64,000 bases of DNA from Candidatus Aenigmatarchaeota archaeon (GTDB taxonomy: Archaea > Aenigmatarchaeota > Aenigmatarchaeia > Aenigmatarchaeales > Aenigmatarchaeaceae), in assembly GCA_043814985.1 (NCBI GenBank), contig JBDRJK010000001.1, positions 34,436 to 98,435 of the forward strand. The letters run 5' to 3'. A program made the translations under genes and the position numbers. The notes beneath the pieces were generated by a model that did no database searches, was not told where the DNA came from, and worked only from the letters and a program-made list of their open reading frames with translations. This document shows, piece after piece, positions 8,299 through 64,000 of this stretch; the first letter of the stretch is position 1, and each line of letters starts with the position of its first letter.

Positions 8299-8429
8299 CT
8301 ATATTCATAAATTGAAAAGACAAACTTATATTAAACACAAGTGTATTTATATAAAAAATAGAACTTAACTTCTAAAAAATGCAATTAAGTTTAAAAGGAA
8401 TAAGTGTCAATTCAATTGAGTGGTAAAAA

Positions 8430-45012: not shown

Positions 45013-45411
45013 CTACTGTCGGAGGCTATAGAACTTTTTTCGACTTAATGTCTTTGATATTGTTAGACCATCATCTTCCATTTGCTTCAGGTATTCATTG
45101 CACCTTGTTCTCGACAGTTTTATGAGTTTACTCAATTGATAGGGAGTGATCTCCCTGTATTTCTGCAGTATCAGCCTGATTGCTTCCTTTGTCTTTACTG
45201 ATACAGTGCGCCTTTGGAGTGTTATGCCGCTTGCCGAGATCACGTCATTGACACTTCTCAAATTCGACTCTATCTTGTCGATTTTCTGGTTTAAACCCTT
45301 TAATCTCTCAATCTCAATTGCTATCTGAGCATAGCGCATGTCCAGCTGCTTCAACAAAGTTTCTATTGAATCCTTCTCTTCATCCTTGGACTTGAAAAAA
45401 GACATAAACAT
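45013..45411 (-). CDS. Coiled-coil + C-terminal winged-HTH DNA-binding protein
   Basis: Heptad region followed by ITPYQLSKLIKLSRTRCNEYLKQMEDDGL...RKKFYSL. Confidence 0.8.
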   Translation of the reverse strand: MFMSFFKSKDEEKDSIETLLKQLDMRYAQIAIEIERLKGLNQKIDKIESNLRSVNDVISASGITLQRRTVSVKTKEAIRLILQKYREITPYQLSKLIKLSRTRCNEYLKQMEDDGLTISKTLSRKKFYSLRQ

Positions 45412-45585: not shown

Positions 45586-46608
45586 ATGACAATAAAGGAA
45601 CCTAGAAAAATTATAATCGAAGCTCTGATGAAGAATCCAGAAGGTTTGACACTTCTTTCACTAGCTGAGGTAACTGGATTGCACCGACACACAGCCACCA
45701 AATATGTCCATGAATTGATTGGAGCAGGGGTTGTCTACCAGAGAAGTGTCGGGGCTGCAAAGCTCTGTTATTTGAAGAAAAAAATAGAGACTGAAACTGA
45801 CGAGAAAAGGGTTCTGGATATGCTTAGGAAAAAGAGGAAAGGAAGCGTCCAAATGAAGCTTTTGATTGCTGTGGTTGTCTTGTCGTTCCTGTTGAGCGAA
45901 TCTGTGATCATAGCATATGAGAACAGCTCCTTCATCAACAATACCAACTTCTCGAACACCAGCCCAGTCACATCAAGCCTCAATAATTCTGACTTGAATA
46001 TCAATTTCAATATAACTGAAAATATCAACAGTACACAAAATAGTTCTGTCGAGCCATCGACAAATGAAACTGAGTTTAATAATAATGGAACTGTCGGAGG
46101 AACTAACGGAACATCCCTAAACACTACTAATGAAACAATAGAAGCCCCGATTATTGAAAATACAACCAATGTAACTGAGCCTGTAAATGCTACAGAGGAC
46201 ATTAATCAGACTATAGACCTTAACTTGACTTTTAATGAAACTTTTGAAGAAAATGAAACTGTTTTTGAAAACATAACAGAAATTATTGAAAGCATAACTT
46301 CTGAAATAGGAAATATTACATCTATAGAACCGATTCTTGATGTAAAGTTGCTGTATCCGCAGAAAATAATAAGGGGTGAAAGCCTGGATATAAGAGCTGA
46401 CCTTGAAAACAGCGGTTATTTGGCTAAAAATGTTGTTCTCAACTGGCTGCTACCTGCTGGTTTTAACATGGTTTCTGGGAATATGAGTGAAAATTGCGGG
46501 GATTTGGATACTGGTGGTTCCTGCTATTCAGAGATTAGCGTTATGACTAATCTGACAACAGGCATTGGCCTGAATGAAATAAGAGTTGTGGTTGATTATG
46601 AAGAGTAG
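45586..46608 (+). CDS. Membrane-anchored winged-HTH protein with extracellular N/T/E-rich stalk and C-terminal Ig-like domain
   Basis: N-terminal HTH (GLTLLSLAEVTGLHRHTATKYVHELIGAG), single TM LLIAVVVLSFLL, many NxS/T sequons, beta-sandwich-like C-terminus. Confidence 0.8.
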   Translation: MTIKEPRKIIIEALMKNPEGLTLLSLAEVTGLHRHTATKYVHELIGAGVVYQRSVGAAKLCYLKKKIETETDEKRVLDMLRKKRKGSVQMKLLIAVVVLSFLLSESVIIAYENSSFINNTNFSNTSPVTSSLNNSDLNINFNITENINSTQNSSVEPSTNETEFNNNGTVGGTNGTSLNTTNETIEAPIIENTTNVTEPVNATEDINQTIDLNLTFNETFEENETVFENITEIIESITSEIGNITSIEPILDVKLLYPQKIIRGESLDIRADLENSGYLAKNVVLNWLLPAGFNMVSGNMSENCGDLDTGGSCYSEISVMTNLTTGIGLNEIRVVVDYEE

Positions 46609-49600
46609 CACTAAGTCAGGACAGAGCCAATTATTGATTCCCCTACTCTTGATTATCTCATCGGCAATGGTATTTGCCACAAATGTCACTCTAAATTTGA
46701 CCAAAAACACAACACCATCAGGAGCTTTTGTAGGCATTCCAAACAGTACAAATGAAACTAATAATTCGCAAGAATTTGTATTCCCAATAGAGGTTTGGGC
46801 TGAAACCTACATTGGTATGAACATAGATGGAAATGTTGTTAAAGCTCACTTGTTCTTGGACAACCAAACAAAAATTGAGAACCACCAAATCAATCTTTAC
46901 CTGAATGGTGTTTTCTTTGGTTCTGATTTAACTGATGTTGAAGGCATTGCTGAATTCACTGTTTCTGAATTTGGGGAATATAAGATATTTGCTGTTTTTG
47001 AAGGCAGAGACTTCTTGAACCCATCTGAAATCAACCTAACTGAGATAATTCAAGAAAATGAGGTTATTTTCGAGATTCTTGGAACAGAGCAGGGTGATAT
47101 TGAGATTGGGGAACCTGTTAAATGGGAGAAGAAATTCAGATTATTTAACCCGAATGACAGGGATGCCTTAGCAGATTTCGAATTGGACTTTCCTGAAGAT
47201 GCTTTTAGCGTTAATGTCGCTGAAAAGGACACGAAAAAGATGTTGAATTTGATTAAGAAATCCATTAGGGAATGGCTCAAAGCCAATGAGAGTAGGGAAT
47301 ATATGCTGGAATACTTCACAGATTCACCAGTCGTAATCGAGGAACTGGTAAACAAGTACAAGAAAGTGATTAACATCAGCTCTCCGATACACTATGAGAA
47401 TGTTCCTGTCTACACTGACATTGAAGAGACTTCCCAAGATTCCATAAGGATTTACTGGATTGTTGATGGTGAGAGAGTAGATATTACTAATAATCCTTCA
47501 TTCAATGTTATTTTCATTGATTCCAATGGAAATGGCCTAATAGATAGAGTAGAGTGGGTTGTTCCACATCTTTCAGACCAGATATTCGAAATTTCAATTA
47601 CTGTCTTGAATGTAGATACTCTTGTAAGAGATGGTGATAACTGGGTAGTCGCATTCAATACAACTGGAACAGCCAATTTGACCATTAATTCCACAAATGC
47701 TGGATGGACTGAGTTTCTGACAGACAACACAAGCACATTTGACGAAATGTTACTGTTGGATATTAATTGTGGCAATGTTTCTTTGAAAGACTCATTACAA
47801 TTGATTGATGAATTTGATAATGTTTACAATTACTCTGACTTAACTGCAAATGACACAATAGACATAAAGCATTTGTTTGTTGAGAATTATTCTTGCAATG
47901 ATACTGGTCTCATAAGCAATAACATGTTAAAAGCTGGTTATGCTGCTCTACAATTCACCTTCGGAGACCAGATTGCTTATGCTTATGATGCTGCAGTAGT
48001 ATGTAACTGGTCAACAGATACTGTTAACTGGGCAGATCAACAAGGTGGTGGTGGTTCTGCATGGGGAACTTCAAATACAACATGGAATCTAGGATATAAT
48101 TGTAGCGAAGCAGGCGGTCCTTCAACTGGCTGCTATATCGCAAACATAACAATAAACATGTATGGTGCTTCGGCGAGCCCTGCATCTGGTGGATTAGGTT
48201 TTGTAATATTTAGCAATGACTCAACACAATTCTTTCCTCTTGCGATTAATGTGGGTGGCGCATATACTTATGGTCCTGTAGATTCTTGTGGAGCTAATAA
48301 CAACTATACTGGTGGAACAGGTTATCCTGGTAGTACACCAAACAGCACTCCAAATACATGTAACATAAGTTTTACTGACTGGTTTAATGTAACATCATAC
48401 ACGGTTAATTGGTATATACCTGGTAAGGGTTCTGTGTCAATTCCAACAATTAGTTACCAGTGGTGTTGGGAAGACGCGCTTCCAAAATTAGATAATCCAG
48501 CTGTTAATGGCACACAATCAGGATATAGTGCAGGTTGGGGAAGTATATTCAACTTTTCAGTAGAAATATGGGAACCTCAAGGCAGTGAAAGTAATGTGAG
48601 TTTATGGTATACTCCAACTGCAGGAACAGGTTGGATGTTTGCAGGATCAAGAAACGATACTTCGCCTCCAACTTCTTCTCCAGGCAACTTGACTAATTTT
48701 ACTATAAACTATAGCTGTAGTGGAGGAACAATTACAGACAGTTTATCAAATGATTTGGGTGTTGTTGGGGCAGCAAAATACTATAAATTCAATGCTACTG
48801 ACCCTTACTCCAATAAAAACGATACTTTTGATTCTTATGGAAACATATATTTCACACCTACAAAAGATGATGTAAATGTTGTGAACGAGACTCCTACAGC
48901 TAATATTATTATAAACAGAAGTGACACAACTGATTTTGTTGTAGAGGTATATGACAGGGAAAAACAGAGTTACGGTAGTGGACAGTCTGGAAAAATATGG
49001 GTGTCTACCTATGAATATGATCAGAACACCAGTTATTTGGTAAGTACTAATTCCACTGGGCATTTAGTACAAACATTTACGAATGCTATCTGGTGTGGGG
49101 ACGAAAAATATTATCTTGGTGTTCATAAATGGAGTGGTGGAACAGACAGTGATTCTTGTGTACAAAACAATGTAACTGAAAGTTCAAATTTCACCCTGTT
49201 GGGTAGTTTATACAACACATTAAACATTCCAGATGGAAGTTCAAATTTCACCCAAGCTCAAACAATAGATTTTACTGCAAGTGTGGCTGATGACTGTAGT
49301 GTTGGAAGAACAGCAACTTCCACAATTAACATCACTATGGTTAATAACGACACTGAATATTTTTGTATTGCTTCAGCAGCTGGTGAATGTTCTATAAGCA
49401 CAGACATTTCTTTCCCGACAGGATGGTACAATGTTACCATAGTTTCAAACAAATCTTACCATAATGATGGTTATTCTATTGATCAGGATGTTTTCTATCT
49501 ATTACCTTACAGGAATGTTTTCAATGAGTCAGTAAATCCAGACTCTGCATATTGGAGCTATCCAAATTGGAACTTCTCTGTTTTAGCAACTTCAGGCGAC

Positions 49601-52600
49601 AACGACCAAATGAATGTATCGCTTTATCTAAGGAAACAAGGTGAAAGTTATTCAGAATGCACTGGGTGTTTTAATCAGACCCCAACAATTTGTGTTAACT
49701 GTGAAAACCAGTCAGTATTCTGGTATCGTAATTTCACTGAACCAGATTCAGGTAGCAATTGGTACTATCAGTTCAGGATGTATAACAACCTAACTGGTGA
49801 ACTTGAAGACCAAACAACCGAGCATTCATTCTACGTGGACAGTATTCCAGATGAAAAAATATATTTGGAGAACGTAACTCAAAGCCCGTCTTCAGGGCAA
49901 TGGGGTGGAACTCCATTCACTTTCAATATTACTGTTAACACGACAGGTATAAACAATGTAAGTGTATTCCTTTGGACTTCAGACAGTGCTACTGGTCCAT
50001 GGTCATTGGTGGAATACCAGAACTACACTATCCCTCCTGGTGGCTGGCAAATAATAAATTACACGACATATTTCGACTGTAATGACATTGACACTGACAA
50101 GTATTTCTTCTTCAATGCAACCAACTACAACATGTCAACAAATACAACAACACCCCAAAGTTTTGAAATAACAAGAGATAGAATAGAGCTTGATTACTAC
50201 TGGGGGCATGACTCGACAGCTAACAGGTCAGGTGACCAGACTGATTTCTTGCTTTTCCGTGCAACCAATGTTAATGGCAGTGACATGGGAAGCTTCCCAA
50301 TAAAATACTCTGTAACATCTGGTAATTCAACAGAAACATATTATACAGATAATAATTTTGTAACTAATACAAATAGTACTGGATTTGCTGAATTTTATTT
50401 CAATGCTACTTGTTTGAATGATTACATTGGAGCACCAAAATTCCAAGTCAGAGAACAGCAATGGAAGGCTCAGTTAAATGACTCTGAACTAGATTGTTAC
50501 TATCAGAATGATAGTTCTGATATCTGGTATAGAAACATGAGTGTTATGGGTAATATCCTGATAACACTATCAAACCCCGACGGAACTGAAAATGTGACTC
50601 AGGAGAATATAATGACTTTCCTTGGTTCCAGCGATGATGACTGTGGGGATTCTCTGAAATTGAACTATACCTTTGGATATGAGGAGATAAAGTACTATGC
50701 AAACAATACTCCGACAACTGGTTTTGACTGTGGTAATTCAACTCTGATTGGTGCCAACGCTTATCGTTGCTACTGGCAGACTGACACTGATACGCCTGTC
50801 CAGGATTACAATGCATCAATGTTTGTGAACAGAATTGGTTACTATCCCAACCAGACATTGGATGATGCTTCCAGAGGATGGCTGTTCTATGTTGATGCAC
50901 TAAGGCAATTCACAAACATAAGTGTTGTGCCTTCGTCAGCCCTATGGGATACAACAGACTGGAACTTCTCCGTCATTGCAACATCAGGAGATTACAACAA
51001 TGAAACAATTGTGCTGCAATTGAAACAGGGTGCTGGTGCATGGCAGAACTGTGAAGATGCTTTAGCACAATGCTACAACATGACTCCAACCAACTGTACA
51101 CACTGCATAAATGAGACATACTTCTGGCATGCCAACTTCACTGCAGACGATGCAGGAACGTGGTTCTACAAGTTCCAGATGAACAACAGCGATACCTATG
51201 TCATAGACGAGGAAACAACTGGCACTGATAGTTTTGACGTGCTGGCAAGCGATGTAAAGATATATATGGAGAATGTCACCAAGTATCCAACGACAGGAAG
51301 CTGGGGTGGTGGCAACTTCACTTTCAATGTTACTGTTAACACGAGTGGTATAAACAATGTTTCTGTATTCCTGTGGACTTCCAACAGCTCCACTGGGCCT
51401 TGGACATTAATTGAAGAGCAGAATTATACTATTCCACCAGGAGATTGGCAACAATTTAATTTTAGTAATGCTTATTATTGTGATGATATAGGGACCAATT
51501 ATTTCTTCTTCAATGCAACGAACTATAACCTGTCGACAAACATGACAAGTCCCCAGAGCTTCACAGTGACAAAGGATACTGTGATATTAGAATACATAGA
51601 GGGTAACAACACAATTGCAAACAGGTCAGGAAGTCAAACTCAGAATCTATCTATAAGATTGAGTGATGGCAACGGTACATACCTAACTGATTTCAATATG
51701 ACCTACTATGTGGAGACAAATAGTTTCGAATATGATTCTGGTAACAATGTGACTTCTGACTCTTCTGGTTATGCCAATTATTCATTTGAACCAACATGTT
51801 CCGGTCCAAGATACGAAGTCGGGAATCAAAACTGGAAAACTGCTGCCTTGGAACAGCAGTGTTATCAGACCAATGACACTGACACTGCAGGGTTTGCCTT
51901 GAATCTGACAGTGATGGGCGACTTCAACATTAGCTTCAATTATCCTGAAACTGTTAACCAAAGTCTTGGCGATCAGGTAATATTCGAATCTGTCATAAAG
52001 GACAATTGTAATGTGGAATTAGGGGGAATAGAAGTAAGATACAATGCAACAAATGAAAACTTCAATGACGAATGTTCTTTGGTTACAAGTCCAGCCACTG
52101 GTCTTTACAGGTGTTTTGAGGGCGGAACAAACGGCTGGGATTCAACAGGAGCTAGGCAGGGTTGGTACAACGCAACTATTAACGCTACCAAAGATTTCTA
52201 CTGGAACAATGTCACAACCAAAGCAGAGGAAGGCCTTGGTCATTTCTATCTATACAGAAAACCAACATTGAGTGGAGATATTGTTGTTCCTTCAATTGGA
52301 GGATGGGCTTTGGACAGAAACTTCTCAGTCAATGTTACTGATGATCCTATTGACAATGTTACTGTTTTCCTATGGCATAGGAGCTCTGGAGGAACTGGAA
52401 ATGTCTGGGAACAGATAAGCACATCTAAATTATGTTCTGATTGCGACAATACCAATGTGAACTGGACTGATGTCAGTTACAACTGTTCATTCGCGTCTGC
52501 TGGAGGTTCTGTTGATTATAAGTTCAATGCCACTGATTTGGATTTGAATAATACTGAAGCTTCAGGATCGTTCACTGTTAATTACGACAATGTCAGTGTT

Positions 52601-55600
52601 ACCAACATAACACCTGTTGCTACTGCCACTATTAACAGAACAGACACCACATCCTTTATCATCGGACTATATGATTTGGACAATAGCACTTCTCCAAATA
52701 ACACACAAAGTAAGATATGGTTCACAACAACTGATGCAGCCACATGGGAAAGCGATGTTGCTGCTCCAACGATTTATTCAAACTCAACTGGTCATTTGAA
52801 CAGGTCAATGACAGCAAGTGGTTGGACCAACCTTTTGGGTTGTGACAATACATACAGCCTGGGTGTTCATTATTGGAAGGGTGGTTCTTACGGATCCAAC
52901 TGTCCTCCAGGTTTGGTTGACAACATAACCTCCTCTATTATATTCACCTTGATGGGAGAATTGAGCAATACCATTTACTGGCCTGTTGGAACCCAAAACT
53001 ACACTGTCGGAAGCGGTATCCACTTGAATGGAACTGTTGTCAGGGATAGCAGCTGTGGTGCAGCTACTGGCATAAGCGTTCTATATAACATTACAAACGG
53101 GACTCATGCGTACAGCTGTGACGGTGTTCACAGGGGCAACGGTGTTTACAACTGCAGCTGGGATTCCAGCGACAAGGCAACAGGTTGGTACAATATCACA
53201 ATGATATCTTACGGCAGCAATTACCATAATGGGACTGATGTTCAGAGTGATGCATTCTACTTGAGAAGTGGAATTCAATTAGAAGACATTTCAATGGAAC
53301 CTGTTGGTGGTGGGAGCTATGGATATTCACCGTTTAACTTTACTGTAAATGTAACATCATCAGACAATGAGAATGTCACTGTTTATTTGTATTTGCAAAA
53401 TGTTTCTGGCTGGTTCCTGGAGAATCAAAGTTCCTGTGTAAGTTGTGATAACACCTACTTCAAGTTCTCCAAGGATTATGACTGTTCGAACATTGGTTCT
53501 TGGGATTACAAGTTCAATGCCACATCTGTCACAGGAGCAGTTAACAACTCATTATCATCCAATAGCTTTACTGTAACAACAGATACAATAAGTATTAACT
53601 ATGGTTCTGGCAACGAGTCTTACGTAAACAGAAGCAACACTAATCCTGAATACGAGATTCCACTTGTTGTCCAAGTTTGGGATACTGTCAAGAACGAGTT
53701 GACAACTGACATAACACTAAGCAACATAAACGCATATGTTACAACAAGCGGTTCAAGTTGGATGGAGTTGTCTGGTGGGCTGGGAACTGTTGTCAATAAC
53801 ACAACTCACTTTAATGTAACATTCGATCCTAACTGTTCATTCTCCGCAGGAAAAAGAAACTGGAAGTTCAACATATCTGGTGAGACTTGTTATGGTGATG
53901 CTGAATCCAGCAACTATAATGTAACTGTTGTTGGTAATCTGTCTGCTTATTACATGAGTCCTACTGGAGGAGCAATATATGATTTAGGAGATAATGTTCC
54001 ATTGTTGGGTAATCTAACAGATGAGTGTAGCAATGACATCATCAATTCAAATGTCGGGTTCCAGCTGAACTCAAGTCCTTCCACAAGTTATTTCTGTACT
54101 TCACCTGGCAATGTCACTGGTAACTTCTATTCATGTGATTGGGATTCAAACAGTTATGATGTAGGCTATTATAATGTCACAATGATATCTTGGAATGATT
54201 CTTATGTCAATGGAACAGACTTTGAAACAGATGCAATCGAGATAAAGTCTATACCTGATCTGGATGTTGCTGATGTCAACCCAAGAGCGGAGGGGTGGGT
54301 CAAGACATTCAACTTTACTGTAAATGTAAGCGATAATGCTGGTGACACTGTCAATGTTTATCTTTGGGAATCTACTGATGGAAGCGAACCATGGATTCAG
54401 ATAGGTGGAATAAATAACTGCACAACTTGCGTTAACGAAACCATGACATGGAACAAGACATACATTTGTGATGATGTCGGGAACAACAGGGTATTCAAGT
54501 TCAATTCAACAGACACAGAAGGTAACAACTATAGCACATCTCTAGTGGCGGGTGATTATGTTGGTGGAAGCAACACTTTCAATATTGAGAAGAATAACAT
54601 AGGCATTGAATACATAATTGGAAATGAAACCAATGCTAGTACTGTCGACCCTGCATTGTTTATTGTGAGGGTGTATGACATTGACAATTCATCCAGTTAC
54701 TATATGACACCTAGCATTGATATTTCATTCAATGTAACCAAACAAGGTTTGAGTAATACTTTCTTTACTGTTGGCAGCAATACAAGCAATGCAACAGGTC
54801 ACATTATCTACTATTTCACACCAGACTCAAGCTTTGCTTCTGTAAAACAAAACTGGACAGCATTTACTTCTGCAGGTGAGGGATGCTACAAACTAAACCA
54901 AAGCGATTATTACAATGTAACAACCCAAACACACGTTCCAAAAATAGAGAACGAGACAGTTGATCCTCAAGTAGGAGGATGGGGAGACGCCAGACAGTTT
55001 AATGTGTCGATATACGATGCCAATGACACTGCCGTTGTAAGATTGTGGAAGTCAACAAGCACTGGAGGACCTTGGACATTTGTAGCTTATCAGAATTATA
55101 CTGATGTTGGAAATTGGGAAAATGTATCCTTCTTGATTAATTTCACTTGCACTGATTACAGAACAGAGCCGTGGTACTTCAAGCTAAATGTTAGTGATGA
55201 TTTCAACAACACGAACTCGACTGATACACCAGAACCCGAGAACAATTACACTGTCAACAAGGATGCTGTAATATTTGAAGAATTTTATGGCAATAACTCA
55301 ACTGCGAATCGTATTGGAAGCCAAACCGATTTATTGTCTTTAAGATTAAGAGATGGAAACGGAACCTATTTGACTGATTTCAATGCCACTTTTTATGTGA
55401 CTACTGACGGAGTCAGCTGGCCTGGTAGTGGTGTTGTCAATCAGAGCAATAGCAGTGGTTATGTTCACTATAACTTTAATCCCATTTGTTCACCAAAGAA
55501 CCAAGTAGGTGACCAGATGTGGAAGGTTGAAGTCGGTGACTCGTGCTATCAGACCAACAGCACCAACACATCAGATTTATTCTTGAACCTGACAGTTATG

Positions 55601-58600
55601 GGCAACATAAACCTTACTTTCACTAGGCCTGATGGAACTACAAACTATACACAGGAAGATCCAATACTGTTCCAGGGTTATACTTACGATGATTGTGGAG
55701 GTGCTATTGCGCCAACAGTAAAGTTCTATGCAAACAATTCAACTGATTATGGCTTTGATTGCGGTAGTGTACAAAAAATAGGTGAAAACGTATTTGAGTG
55801 TACCTGGCAAACCCAGATAACAACACCAAGGGGTTGGTACAACACAACAATGGATGCGAACATAACAGGCCATTATAACAACTTCAGCATAAACTCTGGC
55901 ACTTCTGGTTTGTTCTACTTGAACCCAATATATAAAATAGAAAACATTTTAGGAACACCAACTACAGATGGTTGGGGATACACCAACTGGAACTTTTCAG
56001 CAATAATATCTTCTGGCGATCCTGACACAAGCTATCCTTTGGAGATATTCATGAACAAAGGTTCCCCTGACTTCACAACAGCTTGTTCAGGTTCAACATG
56101 TTTTAACCAGACAACTGTAGAGTGCATTTATCCCGAATGTGTCAACAAAACAGTTTTCTGGTACAGGAACTTCTCTTACAATGATCAGGGAACATGGTTC
56201 TTCAAGTTGAGCTTAGCAGCTGAAGAAACTTCTGGTAATGATATTGTGACAGTGGTAAAAGATGATATACTCATAAACCATTCGTTTGGTAATGGTGAGA
56301 GTGTAAACAGAAGCGGTGATCAATCAAAGCTTTTGGTTGTTTTTGTAAATGATACGGACAGAAACCTGTCAGCAGCAAATCCTTTTGTAAATGTTTATTT
56401 CAATGTAACCAACAACACAGCCAGCAATTATTTAATTTACGGCGCTAACTCTACAAACACAACTGGTTATTCCAATGCAACATTTAACCCGAACTGTGAT
56501 TATTCCAATGGAACTCAGAATTGGTTTTCCTATGTTTCAGGGGATTCAAACTACAATGATGCGAATTCCAGTATATTCAATATAACAATCTACGGAGACC
56601 TAAACCCATCTGAAATTAGAACTTACAACACAACGCATGAAACAAATTATTTCTTCCATGGTCAAAATGTAAACATTACTGGAATTGTAGAGGATGACTG
56701 TGGTAACAGAATCTCAAATGAAACAGGAATAAACGTAACATTCGAGGTTTTCAAAAATAATACTTATCCAGCATCGGCAGATACGTACTGTTTTGATGTA
56801 ACCTATCTTGGAAACGGAATATACAGCTGCCTATGGGACACCAAAACATATGAGAATGATACTTACAAGATAAGAATGGATGCAAGCAATGTAAGCTTCC
56901 ATAACAATGGGACATATTCGAAGCCCGGAGCATTTGGTTTGAATGTACCTCCAAACACGCCTCCAGTTGTAAGCGATGGGAGCGTAACACCAGACCCGGG
57001 TGGCTGGGGTTCAACATTCAACTTCTCAGTGAATGTAACAGATGGGGATGAATTCCAAAACGTTACTGTTCATTTCTGGGAATCTCCTGACGGAAGCGAG
57101 CCATGGACCTTAATAGAAGATCAAACATGCACAGATTGTGTTAACACTACTGTAAAAACTGTTTACTTCAGCAAAAACGATTACAGCTGCCAGCAAATAG
57201 GAATTAGATATTACAAGTTCAATGCAACTGATAATTCAAGTGAGGCAAATGCAGGTTCTGATTCTGATGATGGACCTTACAGTTTTAACCTGACAAGGGA
57301 TAATGTTGAATTCATTAATCCTGTTGGTAGTGCTGGTACTGTAAACAGAAGTGGTAGTCAGGACATATTCCTTGCAGTCCGGATTAACGACACCACTAAA
57401 GGTGTTTTAGTTGAATCTAATGTAACCGCTGGAAGGTTCTGGATAACTTATGATGAACTAAACTGGAACAGTGGAAGCAGTAACAGAACCTCTAACTCAT
57501 CTAGTTATGTAAACTACACATTCGACCCAACATGTACACCTACAAGGTACAATGTAAGCAATGCACAACAATGGAAAGTAGGAGTTTTGAATGATTCTTG
57601 TTATATTGATGCTAACAGTTCTAATTACACCTTGACAATAAAGGGTGATTTAACTAATTCAATGATTAGTCCTGACGGCGATGATGTTTTCTATGATCTT
57701 AACAACATTACATTTGAAGGAAACATAACGAGTGATTGTGGTGACAACTCTATAAATGATGCTAATGTTACTTTCAGCATCTCGCATCAAGCTTCTACTT
57801 ACTATGGCTCTCCGGACCCAGCAAATAACAACGGGACATTTTATAATGCTACGCATAATGTGACAGGAACGCCTGGTGGAAACTATTCATTTACCATGAA
57901 CTCCTCAAGGAATCTTTACAATCCTGATACTGATACCTTATCGAATGCATTCCATCATCAAATTGATCCTCAATTGACGAGCGACTATGTATCACCAGTA
58001 ACAGGATCATGGGGAACAACATTCAGTTTCTATACTGCAGTAACAGATGATGACGATGATGTCAACTTGACATTGTGGGTAAGATGTACAGGTGGAAATA
58101 CTACATTTAATCCTCTCTTTGATTGTAATGAATCCTCAGATTTCAAAGCTTGGGGGTCGCCCTCATCACAAATATGTGCTGATTGTGTAAGCCAGCAAAT
58201 GAATTCTAATTGGACCACTAGTATTGCAGGACATATAGGAGATTACGAATGGTTCTTTAATTCATCAGATAACTATGGTGGATCGAACAACACAACAATA
58301 AAAACATTCAATGTTACAAGAAGGAATGTTTACTTCAATGTAAGTCAAGGCAATAGTTCAAATGTAAGCAGGATAGGGTCAAACAATACATTACTCCAAG
58401 TAAGACTATTTGATGCTTTCAATGATGCCGGACTTAGTGGTTTCTCGGTAAAATTCTATGTAACGCTTGATGGTGCTATTTGGGACTCTTCTGTATCGAA
58501 CACAACATATAGCGGTGGTTATGGTGATTACTACTTCAATCCTACTTGCCCATCACCTTTCTTTAAAACTGGCAGGCAATGGTGGAAAACTACTTTTGAC

Positions 58601-61600
58601 CAAACCAATGCCTACAATACAGGCAACTCAGTCAACTATACTGTGGACATAAATTCAACCCTTAATGGAACAGTGATATACCCAACAGGACAGATAGTGT
58701 TTTCACAGGGAGACACTGTGGAAATTATAGCCAATCTAGAAGATGAATGTGAATACATTGATAATGCTGACAGTGTTGTTTTCAGGGCATATCCTGGAAG
58801 TTGGTCATGCGCACCAGAGCCTGCAGAAAATCTGAACAATGGAACGTACAACTGTACTTTGGCCACCGGATCATTGGGAACTGACATATACAATCTGACA
58901 ATAAACTCTAGCAAGTCTTATTATTATGATGGTTATGATGTAGAGCAAAATGCATTTGAAATAAGGAAGGCTCCTGTCCTAGCAAATCATAGTATAACAC
59001 CAACAGCAGAAGGTTGGGGTTATAATTATACAATAAACCTTACTGTCCAAGACCAGGACCTTGGTGACGTTGATAATGTAACTTTGTGGAAGAGTGTTGG
59101 TGGTGGGGATTGGGAATTCGTGCAATCGCAGAATTGTTCAAGTTGTACTGCCGAGACAACTAAAACTTTCTATCCTCAATTCAACTGTACTGACTACACT
59201 AACGGTCCTAATATCAACCTCAAATTCAATTCAAGCGACAGTTATGGATTGGCAGATGAGACATCCAACTTCTCCGTGACCTTCCAAAAGGACAACGTAT
59301 CATTCACAATAGTCGAGGGCGGTGGTACAGTAAACAGGGAAACTGACACAAAGTGGTTTATAGTTATTGTCAATGACAGTGACAGGAACAATGACACCAT
59401 AGACAATTCACAAGAAGTTGTGGACGGTAAGTACTGGTTCAGTTATAGTTCAGTGCCCATATTTGACGAGGGGCATGATGTCCAAACCAATGCAAGCGGC
59501 CACATGAGCCATGAATTTGCTCCTAACTGTACTTATCAGGTTGGAACAGAGTATTGGTATGTTGAGACAACTGGAAACGACTGTTATGCTGACACAGCTA
59601 CAAGCCAAACTGGAAACACTTATGTTTTGAAGGGTCAGTTGAAAACAAACCTCTTCGAGCCAGTACAATACTCAGAATTTAATGTTACTCAAAACATAAC
59701 GTTTAGGTGGAATGTTTATTCTGATTGTAGCAATGAAGGCAACATCACTGGCGTGACCAACACAATTGACTTGAATAATTTCGATAACACATCAACCTGT
59801 TCATCACCACAAGAAGAGGGAGCATCTGGAGTTTACAATTGTACCTGGAACTCAACAGGAGAACCAGAGGGCAACTGGACAGTGAATGTCACATCTGAGA
59901 AAAACCCATCACTCGAGTACAACACGAACTACAGCAGCTATCAGGATTGGTTCTTCTTGAACAACAAAAATGCAACTGGAGTAAACCCCTTGGTTAATCC
60001 ACCCAATGGAGGATGGGGAGTCTCTTACAGATACAACATAACAGTAAATGATTCTGAAAACGACACAGTATCATGTAGCCTGTATACTAACACAAGCGGC
60101 TCATGGGTGTACAGAGGCATTAACGACATAGTAACACCAGGCAACTGTTCAATCGTGGTTGACAACTTCACTTGTAGCGACCAAGGAACAGGCCAATACT
60201 ATTTCATGATAAACGACACTTACAACACAATAAACACCTCTGAAACTCTAGGTACAACCAGTGGTCCTAGTATTGGAAGGGATGAGGTAAGTGTTACATT
60301 AGTGCAATCAGGCGGGTATCCTGATTACAATGTAAACAGGAGCGGAGGCCAAAACACTACATTGATGCTATTAGTCAACGACACTATTAGAAACCAAGTA
60401 ACTAATGACACTAACGTAACTTTCTGGGTAACCACTGATAGGGTCAGTTATGACTCTGGAAACGTTGTAAACACAAATGAGACTGGTCATGCGATTTATG
60501 TTTTCAATCCAAACTGTAGCGCACCTTTCTATGATGTTGGAAACCAGACTTGGATAGGAGGAACTAATGATTATTGTTATAATGATACAAACACGACAGC
60601 CAACTTTAGTTTAATGTTATGGGGAGACTTGATAAACACTGTGATTGAACCCACTAGCGGCTTCACAGTCTTGCGTGGAAATAACACAACCATAAGGGTA
60701 AATGTAACAGATGATTGTTCTGCTGCTGTTAACATAGATACAATTAATCTAACATCAATACAGGAGCCAAATGAATATGGCTGCTCGCCAATTCTAAACG
60801 AGACTGGAACAGGTTTCTACAATTGCACATTCAACACAAGCTCACCATCACTGATGCCTGCAAGATATTATAAAATAAATGTCAACACAACAAAACAGAA
60901 CCATACTTTCGGTGACATGAATGAAACTGATGCATTCTTCATTGAGACAGAACCCGTCTTAACAAACGAAAGCGTTACACCTGAACAGGCAGGCTGGGGT
61001 TCAACATATACCTTCACTGTCAACTTCACAGACGAGGACTTGGACACAAGCACTGTAACAGTATGGTTCAGGAAATGCACTGATGAGAATTGTACTGCAT
61101 ACAGCCCTGACTGGAGTGGTGCAAACTCTATAAGCAACAGCACTGTTACTGGTATTGGAACAAGTGTTTCATTCAACAAGAACTGGGTGTGTGGTGATAT
61201 AGGTTACTGGCAGTACAAGTTCAATTCCAGTGATTCAAGAAGCTATGTCAATGAAACAGCAGTCCACCAGTTCAATCTAACCAGAGATGCCATATCAATC
61301 GAACACTACTATGGGGACAATTCTACTTCTAACAGAAGCATCCCAGAATCCCAGATGTTGACTGTAAGGGTGTTGGATATAGACAGGGGATATTATATCC
61401 ACGGAGGAGGCTTGCCTTCGACTGTAAATGGAAAAATACTGATTACAAACGACACTGTTAGTAATTTCCTTACAGTATTTTCTGACGTTGCTTCGTCAGG
61501 AGGAGGTTACTTAAACAGAACATGGACTCCCAATTGTACCTTTGAGATCGGACCACAGAAATGGAAAGCCACCATGGAAAACGATGGCTGTTATCAAGAC

Positions 61601-64000
61601 AACATAAGCAGTGAATTCAGTTTAAACTTGACAACATATCCGTTGCAGGTGAATGTGATACAACCAATAAACAACCAGATATACTTGAGGAGCATAGAAA
61701 ACATCCTGGTTAAAGGTAATGTTACTGATGATTGTTCTGCTAGTTTGGGAATAGGTGTTGTCAATGCAAGCGTGATATTCACAGCAGAAAAGCAAGACAT
61801 AGCATTTGCTAGTTCAAGCCCACTACTGTGTACAGTATACAATGAGAGTGATGGGGAATACAACTGTACTATTCTTAACACGACACACAACCAATCAGAA
61901 TGGGATTATGGAATCTATAACATAACAATGAATGCTACAAAAAATTACTATAATAATTCCGCGACAACAACCGAACAAAATTCATTCACCTTAGGAAGCG
62001 AACCTGAACTTACAAGTGTGACTGTCTCTTCAGACCAGGGAGGTTCAACTGGAGGTTGGGGAGAGACTTGGCTTTATTCTGCCAATATAAGAGACAAGGA
62101 TTCAAACACAGTAAATGTTAGTTTGTGGGCTTACAACCTAAGCGGGACTAGTGTATGGGAGTTGCTTAACTCAACTTCATGCCCTGGAGCATTATGTGCA
62201 AACCCAACAACAAGCTTCCAAACTGTTACATTCGACGGGCATACATTTGCATGTTCCAACTTAGAAAGTTTGCTCTCAAGAGGAGTGACATTCAAGTTTA
62301 ATGCTTCAGACACTCTCAACTATACCAATGAGTCCTCTAATAGCACATTCACTTTAGAAAGGGACAATACTCTAACACAGTTTGTTCCTGGTGATTCTGG
62401 AGGAAGTGTGAATAGGGAAGGTGATAATACAGTAAGCCTTGTAGTTCAAATACAGGACGAAGACAAAGGATACATAAATGTTGGTGGAAGCGTTAGTTCA
62501 AAAATATTTGTTACCTACAATGGAACAGAATGGGATTCAGGAGGAGATGAAACAACTAACAGCAGCGGTTTTGTAAACTATGATTTCAACGCAACATGTG
62601 CTTATGAGACTGGTATAAAGACCTGGAGGGGTGGACCTTATAATGACTTGTGTTACAAACCAAGCAATTCAACAGACAGAAATGTTTCTGTTTGGGGACA
62701 GTTGAAGAACAACTTAGATTTGCCAGCATACGGTTCGAACTACTTTACTGGAGAGCCAGTATCAATAAGGTTCAACACGACTTCTGACTGTTCAGGGGAA
62801 GGCTTGATAGCCAATGCAACCCCAGGAGCAATTGAGCTAAGCCTAGCAGGCTCAACTTGGTTGAATTGTACAGGATACACCAATGAATATGATGGATGGT
62901 ACAATTGTACATGGACAGACTCTGTACAGACACCAGGAGAATGGGACATAAGATTCAATTCCAGCAAATCATCAGACTATTACAATTCTAATTCAACTGT
63001 CTATGCTGACTGGTTCAATTTGAGCAATTCAGGACCAACTTACAATAATCAAACCGTTTCACCATCAAGCAACGGATGGGGAGCTTCGTTCAATTATTCT
63101 GTAAACGTTACTGACCTTGATTCAGATGCTGTGAACTGTACATTATTCACATACACCAATGGTGCCTGGTCGAACAGAGGATTTGTAAATGTTTCTCCTT
63201 CATATCCAAAGACTTGTTCAATAATTGTTAATGATTTCACATGTAATGACATTGGAACTGATAACTGGTTTAAGTGGCAATTAGCAGATGAGATAAATGT
63301 AGCCAACACCACAAACTCTTCAGGACCAAACATAACTGCAAACTCAATACAACTGATTCATGTTTACGGCAACAACCAAGAGGTAAACAGGACTTATGGA
63401 AATCTTGATCTAGATGTATTTGTAAATGACACTACCAAGAACCAGGGTGTTGGGAGTGGAGGAAGCCCAACAGCTAGTGTCTACTTCAATATTACAACAG
63501 ACGGGACAAATTACATAACTGAAGGCTCTGACACAACCTCAAGTGGCAATGCAAGTATTAATTTTGCTCCGACATGTAGCGATTATTCTGTAGGTGAACA
63601 AAATTGGTTTACCTATGTTGCTGGAGACAGCTGTTACATTGATCAAAATTCATCTACATTCAACTTGACAATAAACGGTAGTGTAAGCCTAATTATTAAT
63701 TCGCCTGACGGCGAGAAGTATCTGAGAGGCGAGAACAACACCTTGCTGAGGGGCAATGTTACTGATGATTGTGGTCTATCATTTAATAGTTCAATAGTCA
63801 ACTTCACTGCAATACACCGGGACAGTTCAACTGAGTACATGTGCTCTTCCAACAATAACGAGGGCGATGGGAACTACAACTGTACTGTTCTAAATACGAC
63901 ACATGACAGCTGGAGTGCCAAGGGATATGATGTCAAGTTCAATGCAACTGCCGATTATTACAATTACAATGAGACAACGCAGACATGTTTGCCAGGAACA
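46598..64000 (+). CDS. Giant (>5800 aa, truncated by window end) repetitive cell-surface glycoprotein / adhesin-like protein
   Basis: ATG at 46598 (MKSSTKSGQSQLLIPLLLIISSAMVFA); the same frame still reads NYNETTQTCLPGT at 64000; the track lists no ORF ending in this frame; recurring GWG modules. Confidence 0.92.
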   Translation, partial: MKSSTKSGQSQLLIPLLLIISSAMVFATNVTLNLTKNTTPSGAFVGIPNSTNETNNSQEFVFPIEVWAETYIGMNIDGNVVKAHLFLDNQTKIENHQINLYLNGVFFGSDLTDVEGIAEFTVSEFGEYKIFAVFEGRDFLNPSEINLTEIIQENEVIFEILGTEQGDIEIGEPVKWEKKFRLFNPNDRDALADFELDFPEDAFSVNVAEKDTKKMLNLIKKSIREWLKANESREYMLEYFTDSPVVIEELVNKYKKVINISSPIHYENVPVYTDIEETSQDSIRIYWIVDGERVDITNNPSFNVIFIDSNGNGLIDRVEWVVPHLSDQIFEISITVLNVDTLVRDGDNWVVAFNTTGTANLTINSTNAGWTEFLTDNTSTFDEMLLLDINCGNVSLKDSLQLIDEFDNVYNYSDLTANDTIDIKHLFVENYSCNDTGLISNNMLKAGYAALQFTFGDQIAYAYDAAVVCNWSTDTVNWADQQGGGGSAWGTSNTTWNLGYNCSEAGGPSTGCYIANITINMYGASASPASGGLGFVIFSNDSTQFFPLAINVGGAYTYGPVDSCGANNNYTGGTGYPGSTPNSTPNTCNISFTDWFNVTSYTVNWYIPGKGSVSIPTISYQWCWEDALPKLDNPAVNGTQSGYSAGWGSIFNFSVEIWEPQGSESNVSLWYTPTAGTGWMFAGSRNDTSPPTSSPGNLTNFTINYSCSGGTITDSLSNDLGVVGAAKYYKFNATDPYSNKNDTFDSYGNIYFTPTKDDVNVVNETPTANIIINRSDTTDFVVEVYDREKQSYGSGQSGKIWVSTYEYDQNTSYLVSTNSTGHLVQTFTNAIWCGDEKYYLGVHKWSGGTDSDSCVQNNVTESSNFTLLGSLYNTLNIPDGSSNFTQAQTIDFTASVADDCSVGRTATSTINITMVNNDTEYFCIASAAGECSISTDISFPTGWYNVTIVSNKSYHNDGYSIDQDVFYLLPYRNVFNESVNPDSAYWSYPNWNFSVLATSGDNDQMNVSLYLRKQGESYSECTGCFNQTPTICVNCENQSVFWYRNFTEPDSGSNWYYQFRMYNNLTGELEDQTTEHSFYVDSIPDEKIYLENVTQSPSSGQWGGTPFTFNITVNTTGINNVSVFLWTSDSATGPWSLVEYQNYTIPPGGWQIINYTTYFDCNDIDTDKYFFFNATNYNMSTNTTTPQSFEITRDRIELDYYWGHDSTANRSGDQTDFLLFRATNVNGSDMGSFPIKYSVTSGNSTETYYTDNNFVTNTNSTGFAEFYFNATCLNDYIGAPKFQVREQQWKAQLNDSELDCYYQNDSSDIWYRNMSVMGNILITLSNPDGTENVTQENIMTFLGSSDDDCGDSLKLNYTFGYEEIKYYANNTPTTGFDCGNSTLIGANAYRCYWQTDTDTPVQDYNASMFVNRIGYYPNQTLDDASRGWLFYVDALRQFTNISVVPSSALWDTTDWNFSVIATSGDYNNETIVLQLKQGAGAWQNCEDALAQCYNMTPTNCTHCINETYFWHANFTADDAGTWFYKFQMNNSDTYVIDEETTGTDSFDVLASDVKIYMENVTKYPTTGSWGGGNFTFNVTVNTSGINNVSVFLWTSNSSTGPWTLIEEQNYTIPPGDWQQFNFSNAYYCDDIGTNYFFFNATNYNLSTNMTSPQSFTVTKDTVILEYIEGNNTIANRSGSQTQNLSIRLSDGNGTYLTDFNMTYYVETNSFEYDSGNNVTSDSSGYANYSFEPTCSGPRYEVGNQNWKTAALEQQCYQTNDTDTAGFALNLTVMGDFNISFNYPETVNQSLGDQVIFESVIKDNCNVELGGIEVRYNATNENFNDECSLVTSPATGLYRCFEGGTNGWDSTGARQGWYNATINATKDFYWNNVTTKAEEGLGHFYLYRKPTLSGDIVVPSIGGWALDRNFSVNVTDDPIDNVTVFLWHRSSGGTGNVWEQISTSKLCSDCDNTNVNWTDVSYNCSFASAGGSVDYKFNATDLDLNNTEASGSFTVNYDNVSVTNITPVATATINRTDTTSFIIGLYDLDNSTSPNNTQSKIWFTTTDAATWESDVAAPTIYSNSTGHLNRSMTASGWTNLLGCDNTYSLGVHYWKGGSYGSNCPPGLVDNITSSIIFTLMGELSNTIYWPVGTQNYTVGSGIHLNGTVVRDSSCGAATGISVLYNITNGTHAYSCDGVHRGNGVYNCSWDSSDKATGWYNITMISYGSNYHNGTDVQSDAFYLRSGIQLEDISMEPVGGGSYGYSPFNFTVNVTSSDNENVTVYLYLQNVSGWFLENQSSCVSCDNTYFKFSKDYDCSNIGSWDYKFNATSVTGAVNNSLSSNSFTVTTDTISINYGSGNESYVNRSNTNPEYEIPLVVQVWDTVKNELTTDITLSNINAYVTTSGSSWMELSGGLGTVVNNTTHFNVTFDPNCSFSAGKRNWKFNISGETCYGDAESSNYNVTVVGNLSAYYMSPTGGAIYDLGDNVPLLGNLTDECSNDIINSNVGFQLNSSPSTSYFCTSPGNVTGNFYSCDWDSNSYDVGYYNVTMISWNDSYVNGTDFETDAIEIKSIPDLDVADVNPRAEGWVKTFNFTVNVSDNAGDTVNVYLWESTDGSEPWIQIGGINNCTTCVNETMTWNKTYICDDVGNNRVFKFNSTDTEGNNYSTSLVAGDYVGGSNTFNIEKNNIGIEYIIGNETNASTVDPALFIVRVYDIDNSSSYYMTPSIDISFNVTKQGLSNTFFTVGSNTSNATGHIIYYFTPDSSFASVKQNWTAFTSAGEGCYKLNQSDYYNVTTQTHVPKIENETVDPQVGGWGDARQFNVSIYDANDTAVVRLWKSTSTGGPWTFVAYQNYTDVGNWENVSFLINFTCTDYRTEPWYFKLNVSDDFNNTNSTDTPEPENNYTVNKDAVIFEEFYGNNSTANRIGSQTDLLSLRLRDGNGTYLTDFNATFYVTTDGVSWPGSGVVNQSNSSGYVHYNFNPICSPKNQVGDQMWKVEVGDSCYQTNSTNTSDLFLNLTVMGNINLTFTRPDGTTNYTQEDPILFQGYTYDDCGGAIAPTVKFYANNSTDYGFDCGSVQKIGENVFECTWQTQITTPRGWYNTTMDANITGHYNNFSINSGTSGLFYLNPIYKIENILGTPTTDGWGYTNWNFSAIISSGDPDTSYPLEIFMNKGSPDFTTACSGSTCFNQTTVECIYPECVNKTVFWYRNFSYNDQGTWFFKLSLAAEETSGNDIVTVVKDDILINHSFGNGESVNRSGDQSKLLVVFVNDTDRNLSAANPFVNVYFNVTNNTASNYLIYGANSTNTTGYSNATFNPNCDYSNGTQNWFSYVSGDSNYNDANSSIFNITIYGDLNPSEIRTYNTTHETNYFFHGQNVNITGIVEDDCGNRISNETGINVTFEVFKNNTYPASADTYCFDVTYLGNGIYSCLWDTKTYENDTYKIRMDASNVSFHNNGTYSKPGAFGLNVPPNTPPVVSDGSVTPDPGGWGSTFNFSVNVTDGDEFQNVTVHFWESPDGSEPWTLIEDQTCTDCVNTTVKTVYFSKNDYSCQQIGIRYYKFNATDNSSEANAGSDSDDGPYSFNLTRDNVEFINPVGSAGTVNRSGSQDIFLAVRINDTTKGVLVESNVTAGRFWITYDELNWNSGSSNRTSNSSSYVNYTFDPTCTPTRYNVSNAQQWKVGVLNDSCYIDANSSNYTLTIKGDLTNSMISPDGDDVFYDLNNITFEGNITSDCGDNSINDANVTFSISHQASTYYGSPDPANNNGTFYNATHNVTGTPGGNYSFTMNSSRNLYNPDTDTLSNAFHHQIDPQLTSDYVSPVTGSWGTTFSFYTAVTDDDDDVNLTLWVRCTGGNTTFNPLFDCNESSDFKAWGSPSSQICADCVSQQMNSNWTTSIAGHIGDYEWFFNSSDNYGGSNNTTIKTFNVTRRNVYFNVSQGNSSNVSRIGSNNTLLQVRLFDAFNDAGLSGFSVKFYVTLDGAIWDSSVSNTTYSGGYGDYYFNPTCPSPFFKTGRQWWKTTFDQTNAYNTGNSVNYTVDINSTLNGTVIYPTGQIVFSQGDTVEIIANLEDECEYIDNADSVVFRAYPGSWSCAPEPAENLNNGTYNCTLATGSLGTDIYNLTINSSKSYYYDGYDVEQNAFEIRKAPVLANHSITPTAEGWGYNYTINLTVQDQDLGDVDNVTLWKSVGGGDWEFVQSQNCSSCTAETTKTFYPQFNCTDYTNGPNINLKFNSSDSYGLADETSNFSVTFQKDNVSFTIVEGGGTVNRETDTKWFIVIVNDSDRNNDTIDNSQEVVDGKYWFSYSSVPIFDEGHDVQTNASGHMSHEFAPNCTYQVGTEYWYVETTGNDCYADTATSQTGNTYVLKGQLKTNLFEPVQYSEFNVTQNITFRWNVYSDCSNEGNITGVTNTIDLNNFDNTSTCSSPQEEGASGVYNCTWNSTGEPEGNWTVNVTSEKNPSLEYNTNYSSYQDWFFLNNKNATGVNPLVNPPNGGWGVSYRYNITVNDSENDTVSCSLYTNTSGSWVYRGINDIVTPGNCSIVVDNFTCSDQGTGQYYFMINDTYNTINTSETLGTTSGPSIGRDEVSVTLVQSGGYPDYNVNRSGGQNTTLMLLVNDTIRNQVTNDTNVTFWVTTDRVSYDSGNVVNTNETGHAIYVFNPNCSAPFYDVGNQTWIGGTNDYCYNDTNTTANFSLMLWGDLINTVIEPTSGFTVLRGNNTTIRVNVTDDCSAAVNIDTINLTSIQEPNEYGCSPILNETGTGFYNCTFNTSSPSLMPARYYKINVNTTKQNHTFGDMNETDAFFIETEPVLTNESVTPEQAGWGSTYTFTVNFTDEDLDTSTVTVWFRKCTDENCTAYSPDWSGANSISNSTVTGIGTSVSFNKNWVCGDIGYWQYKFNSSDSRSYVNETAVHQFNLTRDAISIEHYYGDNSTSNRSIPESQMLTVRVLDIDRGYYIHGGGLPSTVNGKILITNDTVSNFLTVFSDVASSGGGYLNRTWTPNCTFEIGPQKWKATMENDGCYQDNISSEFSLNLTTYPLQVNVIQPINNQIYLRSIENILVKGNVTDDCSASLGIGVVNASVIFTAEKQDIAFASSSPLLCTVYNESDGEYNCTILNTTHNQSEWDYGIYNITMNATKNYYNNSATTTEQNSFTLGSEPELTSVTVSSDQGGSTGGWGETWLYSANIRDKDSNTVNVSLWAYNLSGTSVWELLNSTSCPGALCANPTTSFQTVTFDGHTFACSNLESLLSRGVTFKFNASDTLNYTNESSNSTFTLERDNTLTQFVPGDSGGSVNREGDNTVSLVVQIQDEDKGYINVGGSVSSKIFVTYNGTEWDSGGDETTNSSGFVNYDFNATCAYETGIKTWRGGPYNDLCYKPSNSTDRNVSVWGQLKNNLDLPAYGSNYFTGEPVSIRFNTTSDCSGEGLIANATPGAIELSLAGSTWLNCTGYTNEYDGWYNCTWTDSVQTPGEWDIRFNSSKSSDYYNSNSTVYADWFNLSNSGPTYNNQTVSPSSNGWGASFNYSVNVTDLDSDAVNCTLFTYTNGAWSNRGFVNVSPSYPKTCSIIVNDFTCNDIGTDNWFKWQLADEINVANTTNSSGPNITANSIQLIHVYGNNQEVNRTYGNLDLDVFVNDTTKNQGVGSGGSPTASVYFNITTDGTNYITEGSDTTSSGNASINFAPTCSDYSVGEQNWFTYVAGDSCYIDQNSSTFNLTINGSVSLIINSPDGEKYLRGENNTLLRGNVTDDCGLSFNSSIVNFTAIHRDSSTEYMCSSNNNEGDGNYNCTVLNTTHDSWSAKGYDVKFNATADYYNYNETTQTCLPGT
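48480..64000 (+). repeat. ~17 diverged tandem protein modules (mostly ~1.0 kb / ~335 aa) within the giant ORF
   Basis: GWG-type motifs near 48536, 49553, 49901, 50945, 51302, 52304, 53318, 54296, 54980, 55973, 57005, 58010, 59015, 60014, 60995, 62058, 63077. Confidence 0.85.

Follow-up and report, generated by a model that had tools for sequence, protein, structure and literature searches.

A candidate host-tethering giant of a Candidatus Aenigmatarchaeota archaeon: a predicted rod of Ig-like modules whose orthologues end in a membrane-anchored HerA-type ATPase

The locus described here bears on the means by which DPANN archaea hold on to their hosts and feed on them. The attachment structures of these cells have been imaged, and their proteins are stated to be unknown in the available text of the reports (PMC11420986; also PMC11329633). 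The window, meaning the whole 64,000-nucleotide stretch analysed, is G000:C1:34436-98435, where G000 is a genome of 808 kb in 21 contigs that is 91% complete. A single forward-strand frame had been proposed to open at 46598 and to run without a stop through 64000. Translation from the ATG at 46598 yields 5,801 codons with 0 stops, and the remaining two forward frames hold 388 and 563 stops over the same interval. A TTG in frame with this ORF lies at 46586. The end of the window is the end of contig C1 (98,435); thus, the giant gene is truncated by the assembly, and an ORF track that required a stop probably missed it because of this cut. A public protein library already contains an identical 5,801-aa protein (P0120). 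The features of the locus are as follows.

43149-44095, 32395-35007, 26308-27912 and 8430-10013, strand not given: housekeeping genes elsewhere in the window, from gene-family matches
45013..45411, minus strand: small, divergent coiled-coil/HTH gene that also flanks the locus in G001, G003, G013 and G017
45586..46608, plus strand: upstream gene for a winged-helix domain, a hydrophobic segment and a sequon-rich secreted domain, overlapping the start of the giant by 11 nt
46598..64000, plus strand: giant ORF, N-terminal 5,801 aa, open to the contig end and colinear with the G001 and G013 orthologues
46598..46693, plus strand: signal peptide or N-terminal hydrophobic segment, aa 1-32, the sole hydrophobic segment in the 5,801 aa
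46775..47053, plus strand: H1, Ig/macroglobulin-like beta-sandwich in a predicted model (4zjh, Z 10.8, rmsd 2.2, 77 aligned)
47084..47602, plus strand: H2, all-beta in a predicted model
47519..47545, plus strand: DxNxNG-type putative Ca-binding loop, aa 308-316, between two beta-strands in the model
47603..48478, plus strand: H3 (beta, confidently modelled) and H4 (Cys-rich, poorly modelled), from a predicted model and the orthologue alignment
48491..63991, plus strand: stalk of 46 Ig-like modules, from chunked BLAST, HMMs and a structure model

The reality of so long a frame was assessed from reads, composition and conservation. Read contigs from three runs in two studies, of which one run may itself be the source of the assembly, each give depth in 30 of 30 bins, mostly 2-7; this coverage indicates that the giant sequence is not an assembly chimera, and the contig break is probably due to low depth. 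The variants listed within the ORF (two substitutions and one 1-base deletion) all come from one run. The GC content of 36-41% equals that of the remainder of the window, so there is no sign of recent transfer. The genomic context is one of ordinary archaeal housekeeping genes (Spt5, L11, LeuRS, PheRS beta and TopoVI B). In agreement with the very dense N-x-S/T sequons originally reported, the protein carries 384 sequons, compared with 137 ± 10 in 500 shuffled versions (maximum 166), a density of 2.8 times chance. Relative to the orthologue in G001, a genome of the same genus, 122 of 123 Cys residues and 331 of 384 sequons are kept, and Asn is conserved at 340 of the 384 sequon positions compared with 168 of 283 other Asn positions. 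Judged by this comparison, the sequons are under selection. With a dN of 0.22 and a saturated dS, the gene as a whole reads as being under purifying selection, which is strong right up to the contig break.

The N-terminal hydrophobic segment (aa 1-32) agrees with the signal or transmembrane segment first proposed, and its hydrophobic stretch is preceded by a G/S-Q motif common to several relatives. It is followed by a head of four domains (aa ~60-627, within about 630 aa of the N-terminus). The model of the head has a pLDDT of 70 and is confident over aa 60-465, with ~160 aa remaining unmodelled. A fold search with this model returned a clear solved match for H1 only, with none for H2 and H3. 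All clusters retrieved from the ESM Atlas were unnamed, and their recognition values lay below the mark set by the tool. H1 is the most variable part of the protein (39% identity to the same-genus orthologue), and H4 is 84% identical. All of the N-terminal motifs quoted in the original prediction are present in the translated frame, and H2 is the domain that carries them. This domain is mobile: it recurs in large DPANN surface proteins, several of which are labelled Woesearchaeota, Nanoarchaeota, Pacearchaeota or Aenigmarchaeota. The loop in H2 had been described as EF-hand-like; in the model it is flanked by beta-strands rather than helices and is thus not an EF-hand. Its first Asp is invariant in 32 aligned sequences. 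The head was matched in 11 of 41 searched genomes, G000 among them.

The stalk is built from three module classes of ~110 aa each (17 A, 15 B and 14 C) arranged as ABC-A-ABC-A-ABC-ABC-ABC-AB-(ABC)x9, with a unit of ~335 aa. Whole-protein BLAST gave no internal or off-target match, and the modules were resolved by chunked BLAST and HMMs. They contain conserved Cys pairs and 6.6 sequons per 100 aa, and the commonly used sequon positions are spread over many strands in all three module types. A model of an ABCA segment, prepared from 145 aligned units, has a pLDDT of 95.4 and is nearly all beta. Its best structural match is 6xi3, the tandem extender of a large adhesin from bacteria (Z 14.0, rmsd 9.7, 378 aligned); fibronectin, ICAM and invasin come next. 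Based on this model, the stalk is predicted to be a rod of Ig-like beta-sandwiches, in keeping with the tandem Cys-paired, sequon-rich beta modules of a DPANN surface giant that had been proposed. The accompanying statement that the repeat cannot be assigned to a named family stands in part: scans of the 5,801 aa with Pfam and NCBIfam gave no match above cut-off, but the modules are Ig-like in the model. The same scans revealed no catalytic or lectin family, in agreement with the original statement that no catalytic motif was recognised. The ABC triplet is, as modelled here, an unnamed three-domain unit. At E<=1e-3 its profile matches 1,265 representative proteins, a number that falls to 391 at E<=1e-30. 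With the extenders of bacterial adhesins (6xi3, invasin 1cwv and FdeC 4e9l; Z 14.0, 10.9 and 11.0, respectively), the stalk shares a head-to-tail Ig-like rod. In contrast to these proteins, to which identity is at most 14%, it alternates modules of three classes, which have conserved Cys pairs and carry sequons for N-glycosylation, and in the orthologues a C-terminal TM-ATPase replaces the beta-barrel or T1SS signal.

Because the window ends with the contig, a stop and an anchor are seen only in orthologues. In G013, a genome of the same family, the syntenic giant is complete at 10,205 aa. It consists of a signal, a head, 23 A, 21 B and 21 C modules, ~1,900 aa of other Ig-like domains and a Pro/Gly linker, followed by one TM helix at about aa 9805-9834, a cytoplasmic ATPase that matches DUF87/HerA, HerA_C and T4SS-DNA_transf, and a coiled coil. 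The window giant is colinear with the G001 orthologue over its whole length (57-75% identity), and its aa 3200-5801 are colinear with aa 2360-4974 of the G013 protein (50-72% identity), from which the full gene is estimated at ~11,000 aa. In G001 and G003, both of the same genus as G000, 5'-open ABC frames of 4,407 and 4,233 aa at contig starts end in ATPases that are 85% and 82% identical to that of G013. The two G001 contigs have no exact overlap, and the G001 gene is bridged solely by comparison with G013. Both frames are followed by a coiled-coil protein, then by small genes, a surface protein of ~1,950 aa, a run of membrane proteins and MinD. Contig C12 of G000 opens inside the ~1,950-aa gene and continues with the same run of genes. 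This arrangement suggests that ~20 kb, including the tail of the giant, is missing between contigs C1 and C12, and we infer that the window's own gene carries the same TM-ATPase-coiled-coil tail within this gap. The original prediction, which saw a filament or adhesin with a repeat of no assignable family, did not include such a tail because the C-terminal half lies past the contig end; the orthologues, with a TM helix and a HerA-type ATPase, instead place the protein with the SPEARE-type giants discussed below.

Two pieces of G000 were considered as the missing tail and rejected. A 5'-open 933-aa frame on C12 is the orthologue of the separate ~1,950-aa gene a few genes downstream. A 5'-open ATPase fragment on C11, the sole ATPase fragment in G000, belongs to a shorter paralogue of the 727-aa type (77.5% identity and synteny). 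When the three runs were aligned at 80% to the C-terminal region of the G001 gene, the pieces were identical to G001 or came from other relatives at ~82-90% identity, and none among them was assignable to the window's organism. The link between array and ATPase was also seen across the family. The best 80 loci include 46 ATPase frames of at least 3,000 aa, and 44 of these contain at least six modules, a fraction inflated by the choice of these loci for closeness to the query. Among the 150 ABC-search proteins listed, all four that extend at least 1,500 aa beyond the last module end in the ATPase.

The ATPase domain itself is highly conserved: across 64 sequences, little or no variation is seen in its Walker A and Walker B motifs or in R-x-F-R-K-W-G / S-Q. 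Its closest solved relative is the archaeal HerA 4d2i (E 2.5e-12). The ATPase profile confirmed at least 583 of 597 listed candidate stretches in GTDB genomes. Of the best 80 loci, those with a named record belong mostly to Ca. Aenigmatarchaeota, the others being Micrarchaeota, Nanoarchaeia/Woesearchaeota, Altiarchaeota, Parvarchaeota, Nanohalarchaeota and one Heimdallarchaeota bin. The same ATPase also occurs on proteins of 600-730 aa with short ectodomains. In a quick tree with a very long outgroup, the nanohaloarchaeal ATPases were placed among the family members. Two genomes (G122 and G092; L155-L160 and L189-L192) present a separate pattern, in which the ATPase of the giant clusters with the short ATPase encoded next to it; this grouping suggests gene conversion or repeated tandem duplication.

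The orthologue ATPases share the HerA/FtsK P-loop fold, with intact Walker A/B and R/Q motifs, with archaeal HerA (4d2i) and with CedB, CedD and TedB. They differ from HerA in that the HAS barrel is missing and the helical insert is short, with much of it absent; ring formation and DNA handling are thus not given. Their scores lie far below the curated cut-offs for HerA, CedB and CedD, and, in contrast to HerA and the Ced ATPases, they are fused to a TM helix and a giant ectodomain. Unlike in the Ced/Ted import systems, no partner of the CedA/VirB6 type was found in five genomes that are 89-91% complete: PF03135 (VirB4 N-terminal) and PF04610 (VirB6) are matched in 0 of 5, archaeal homologues of these families being divergent.

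Ten complete ABC giants of 9,182-14,519 aa were compared. They contain 14-26 A modules; the array and the tail are kept, and the heads differ widely. Several of these proteins have further features. In most of the complete giants (L164-L188), a non-ABC insert of ~850 aa follows the first 'ABCAB' and occurs up to twice per protein; it gives weak NPCBM_assoc/DUF11 matches and is absent from the window and from G013. The head of the 14,236-aa G043 giant (L163:444-9443) has an Intein_splicing match at aa 253-387 that is below the curated cut-off, and that of the G045 giant has an intein-like start by eye. A relative of the ABC giants on metagenome contig L038 (frame from base 3, ~7,250 codons) contains three single in-frame TGA codons, at 3102, 3438 and 6108, with no TAA or TAG. 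The modules stay in register across each, and in alignment one TGA falls at a conserved Gly and two at Ser-rich columns. Archaeal read-through or recoding of TGA, or recent decay, are possible readings of this sequence. Of the 26 genomes in the window's order with a completeness of at least 85%, 8 match ABC: six have multi-unit arrays and two a single unit. The occurrence of arrays in only 6 of 26 implies that the system is dispensable or often unassembled.

The surroundings of the giant are conserved as well. The upstream wHTH-TM gene is fused in frame to the giant in 2 of the 10 complete giants (G043 and G051, by BLAST), an arrangement that would place a DNA-binding domain and an ATPase at opposite ends of one chain. 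By eye, a third fusion is apparent in G062 (loci: L163/G043:C1, G051:C3 and G062:C3). Directly behind the giant in G001, G003, G008 and G013 is a coiled-coil protein of 579-736 aa and not a second ATPase. The operon that continues from there (G000:C12:18000-36338 = L030; G001:C4) encodes a coiled-coil protein, the ~1,950-aa TM surface protein, Ig-TM proteins and MinD. Several of its products end in short charged helical tails, which we take to resemble SHOCT. A paralogous second locus was observed in L019 (G017:C3), L021 (G019:C77), L061 (G013:C5) and the end of G000:C11. It begins with a surface protein of 2,700-3,200 aa that shares the head domains of the giant and has no ABC modules, and it continues with small secreted genes, a separate Ig-TM-ATPase of ~730 aa, a coiled-coil protein and MinD. 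The ATPase type of this second locus also ends frames of >4,300 aa in G003 and G006. In G000, the start of C8 (a 3'-open frame on the minus strand) and the start of C19 (a 5'-open 1,921-aa frame) overlap in an identical peptide; a further large surface protein (>2,500 aa) is therefore divided between these two contigs.

Giants of a similar kind have been described from nanohaloarchaea. According to the available text of Reva 2023 (PMC10266531), two proteins of 9,409 and 8,880 aa comprise a signal, an Ig domain, two propellers and ~75 Ig-like domains and end in a TM helix, a VirB4/TraG-like ATPase and a coiled coil, with a second ATPase following. The name SPEARE was coined by Hamm 2019 (PMC6642349), with one member detected by proteomics; in the portion of that paper at hand, all SPEARE ectodomains are stated to have LamG, and similar intracellular parts are noted in Aenigmarchaeota, Woesearchaeota, Micrarchaeota and Altiarchaeales. 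Reva 2023 (PMC10266531), in its available text, disputes the assignment of protease and endonuclease domains to the original SPEARE. In our searches, the ATPase is present in 27 of 70 genomes of the nanohaloarchaeal phylum (including G063). Five nanohaloarchaeal frames end in it (9,433, 8,891, 8,592, 8,315 and 7,869 aa), and behind each lies a second ATPase of 623-677 aa, as in Reva's layout. The ATPase of the 9,433-aa frame is 43% identical to that of G013 over 341 aa (E 7e-91), and this frame also has a weak match to the membrane-proximal stalk of G013, with 0 matches in shuffled controls. One A-B pair is found in 4 of the 5 frames, the 9,433-aa frame included.

The window's protein resembles a SPEARE in its signal peptide and in its giant extracytoplasmic region, the bulk of which is tandem Ig-like domains. 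The orthologues in G013, G001, G003 and G008 add the one TM, the HerA-like ATPase and the coiled coil, a part that in the window's gene would lie beyond the contig. There are also differences. The ABC giants have a strict triplet array, whose 14-26 A modules compare with one in the nanohaloarchaeal frames; they reach 14,519 aa compared with 9,409 aa published; no second ATPase follows them in G001, G003, G008 and G013, its place being taken by the coiled-coil protein; and a wHTH-TM gene precedes or is fused to them. LamG was found neither in the window's 5,801 aa, the visible half, nor in aa 1-1500 and 7850-10206 of the G013 protein, the rest of which is the ABC array; the four LamG matches of G000 all sit on C11. 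No WD40- or PQQ-like propeller was found in the window head, where aa 60-465 are of beta-sandwich type with no Pfam match, and the Pfam/NCBIfam scans gave no serine protease, toxin-like or restriction-endonuclease domain. Given these absences of LamG, propellers and a tandem ATPase, the ABC giant is not a SPEARE in the original sense. At the level of sequence, the ABC giants are homologous to SPEARE-type giants: the kind is already published, and the ABC variant looks new. No description of the ABC repeat or of these Aenigmarchaeota giants was found in literature outside subscription papers, although Fig. S17 or Table S3 of PMC6642349 may name them, and the available part of PMC8407114 yielded no mention of such giant proteins.

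What might such a protein do? The architecture, an exported rod with a variable head and a TM-ATPase base, is well supported. The function that best explains it, which we favour with moderate confidence, is that of a glycosylated, disulfide-stapled Ig-like rod that tethers the symbiont to its host, with a HerA-type ATPase at its base. Sec export and glycosylation by AglB would yield an extended, disulfide-stapled rod. An AglB/STT3 gene is present in G000; Thioredoxin_4/DsbA was not found in this genome (91% complete). An extended Ig-like domain is ~4-4.5 nm long, and the rod would measure roughly 200 nm in its visible part and 350-400 nm in full, thereby reaching past the S-layer. The variable head would bind host or substrate surfaces. 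The ATPases may form a HerA-like ring that, jointly with the coiled-coil and membrane proteins encoded downstream, brings several stalks together at a single point of contact; ATP might drive the transfer of DNA or protein or a remodelling of the junction. Of the glycosylated filament or adhesin first envisaged, the secreted giant that is probably an adhesin or tether is thus retained, in line with the AglB/STT3 gene, and its purely structural character is not.

The alternative that survives best, though it is unlikely, is that the protein forms a protective or spacing glycan coat, or an adhesin for abiotic surfaces, and that the ATPase serves only the protein's own export, assembly, retraction or shedding. 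A selected sequon density of 2.8 times chance would suit a coat, as would 5,801 aa with neither a catalytic nor a lectin family, and the separation of ecto- and cytoplasmic peptides of a nanohaloarchaeal giant into different size fractions, given in the available text of PMC6642349, may reflect processing. The variable, exchangeable head and the cost of the gene (~4% of the genome if full length) better fit target recognition, and the proteins of 600-730 aa that bear the same ATPase on short ectodomains need no special export motor.

An improbable alternative is that several stalks pack into a hollow secretion 'straw' of T4SS type that the ATPase uses to inject effectors into the host. Such straws are proposed for the nanohaloarchaeal giants in the available text of Reva et al. 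2023 (PMC10266531, section 11), an idea repeated in the consulted part of PMC11001535, and cytoplasmic bridges are reported for DPANN-host pairs in the accessible text of PMC11420986, PMC11329633 and PMC11001535. The ATPase also gives weak matches to TraD, TraC, CedD and CedB models, all far under cut-off. Against this proposal, the monomer is predicted to be a solid beta-sandwich chain with no lumen, and its sequons, placed on many strands, fit a glycan-coated surface better than tight lateral packing. The 0 of 5 result for PF03135 and PF04610 (genomes 89-91% complete) and the coiled-coil protein in place of a second ATPase behind the giants of G001, G003, G008 and G013 point in the same direction.

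That the protein is instead a contact receptor is quite improbable. In this case, binding or tension at the tip would be relayed through the TM helix to an ATPase switch acting with the adjacent membrane-tethered winged-helix regulator. The single-pass topology is that of a receptor, and the wHTH-TM gene overlaps the start of the giant or forms one frame with it (in G043 and G051, and by eye in G062); however, the search for wHTH matches around the five nanohaloarchaeal giants gave none, and signalling switches are not known among HerA/FtsK-type ATPases. Finally, a passive adhesin, with no ATPase in the window's organism or with a gene that ends soon after the contig break, accords with a tail that is absent from the assembly and to which no reads are assignable, but is highly unlikely in view of the strong purifying selection up to the break, the ATPase tails kept by two same-genus genomes and the intact downstream operon on C12.

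The tether reading has a bolder, DPANN-wide form, which we regard as doubtful: a contact-and-pump encoded in one gene that imports host DNA or protein without a channel of the VirB6/CedA type, in which up to six stalks of 11,000-14,500 aa, a HerA-type ring, swappable heads, and coiled-coil/membrane and wHTH partners would be the filament and motor of the DPANN attachment structures. According to the available text of 10.1101/2023.11.21.568195, few archaeal proteins exceed 10,000 aa, and they occur most often in Asgard; if this reading is true, stalks of 11,000-14,500 aa would be among the longest archaeal proteins on record. To the question of how DPANN archaea hold their hosts, the locus adds a three-domain ABC repeat, a clade with members of 9,000-14,500 aa and a conserved operon. 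Its ATPase domain, ~280 aa in the same-genus orthologue (L046:12176-13021), is small, highly conserved and expressible, which makes the ideas of a tether, a straw and a motor testable.
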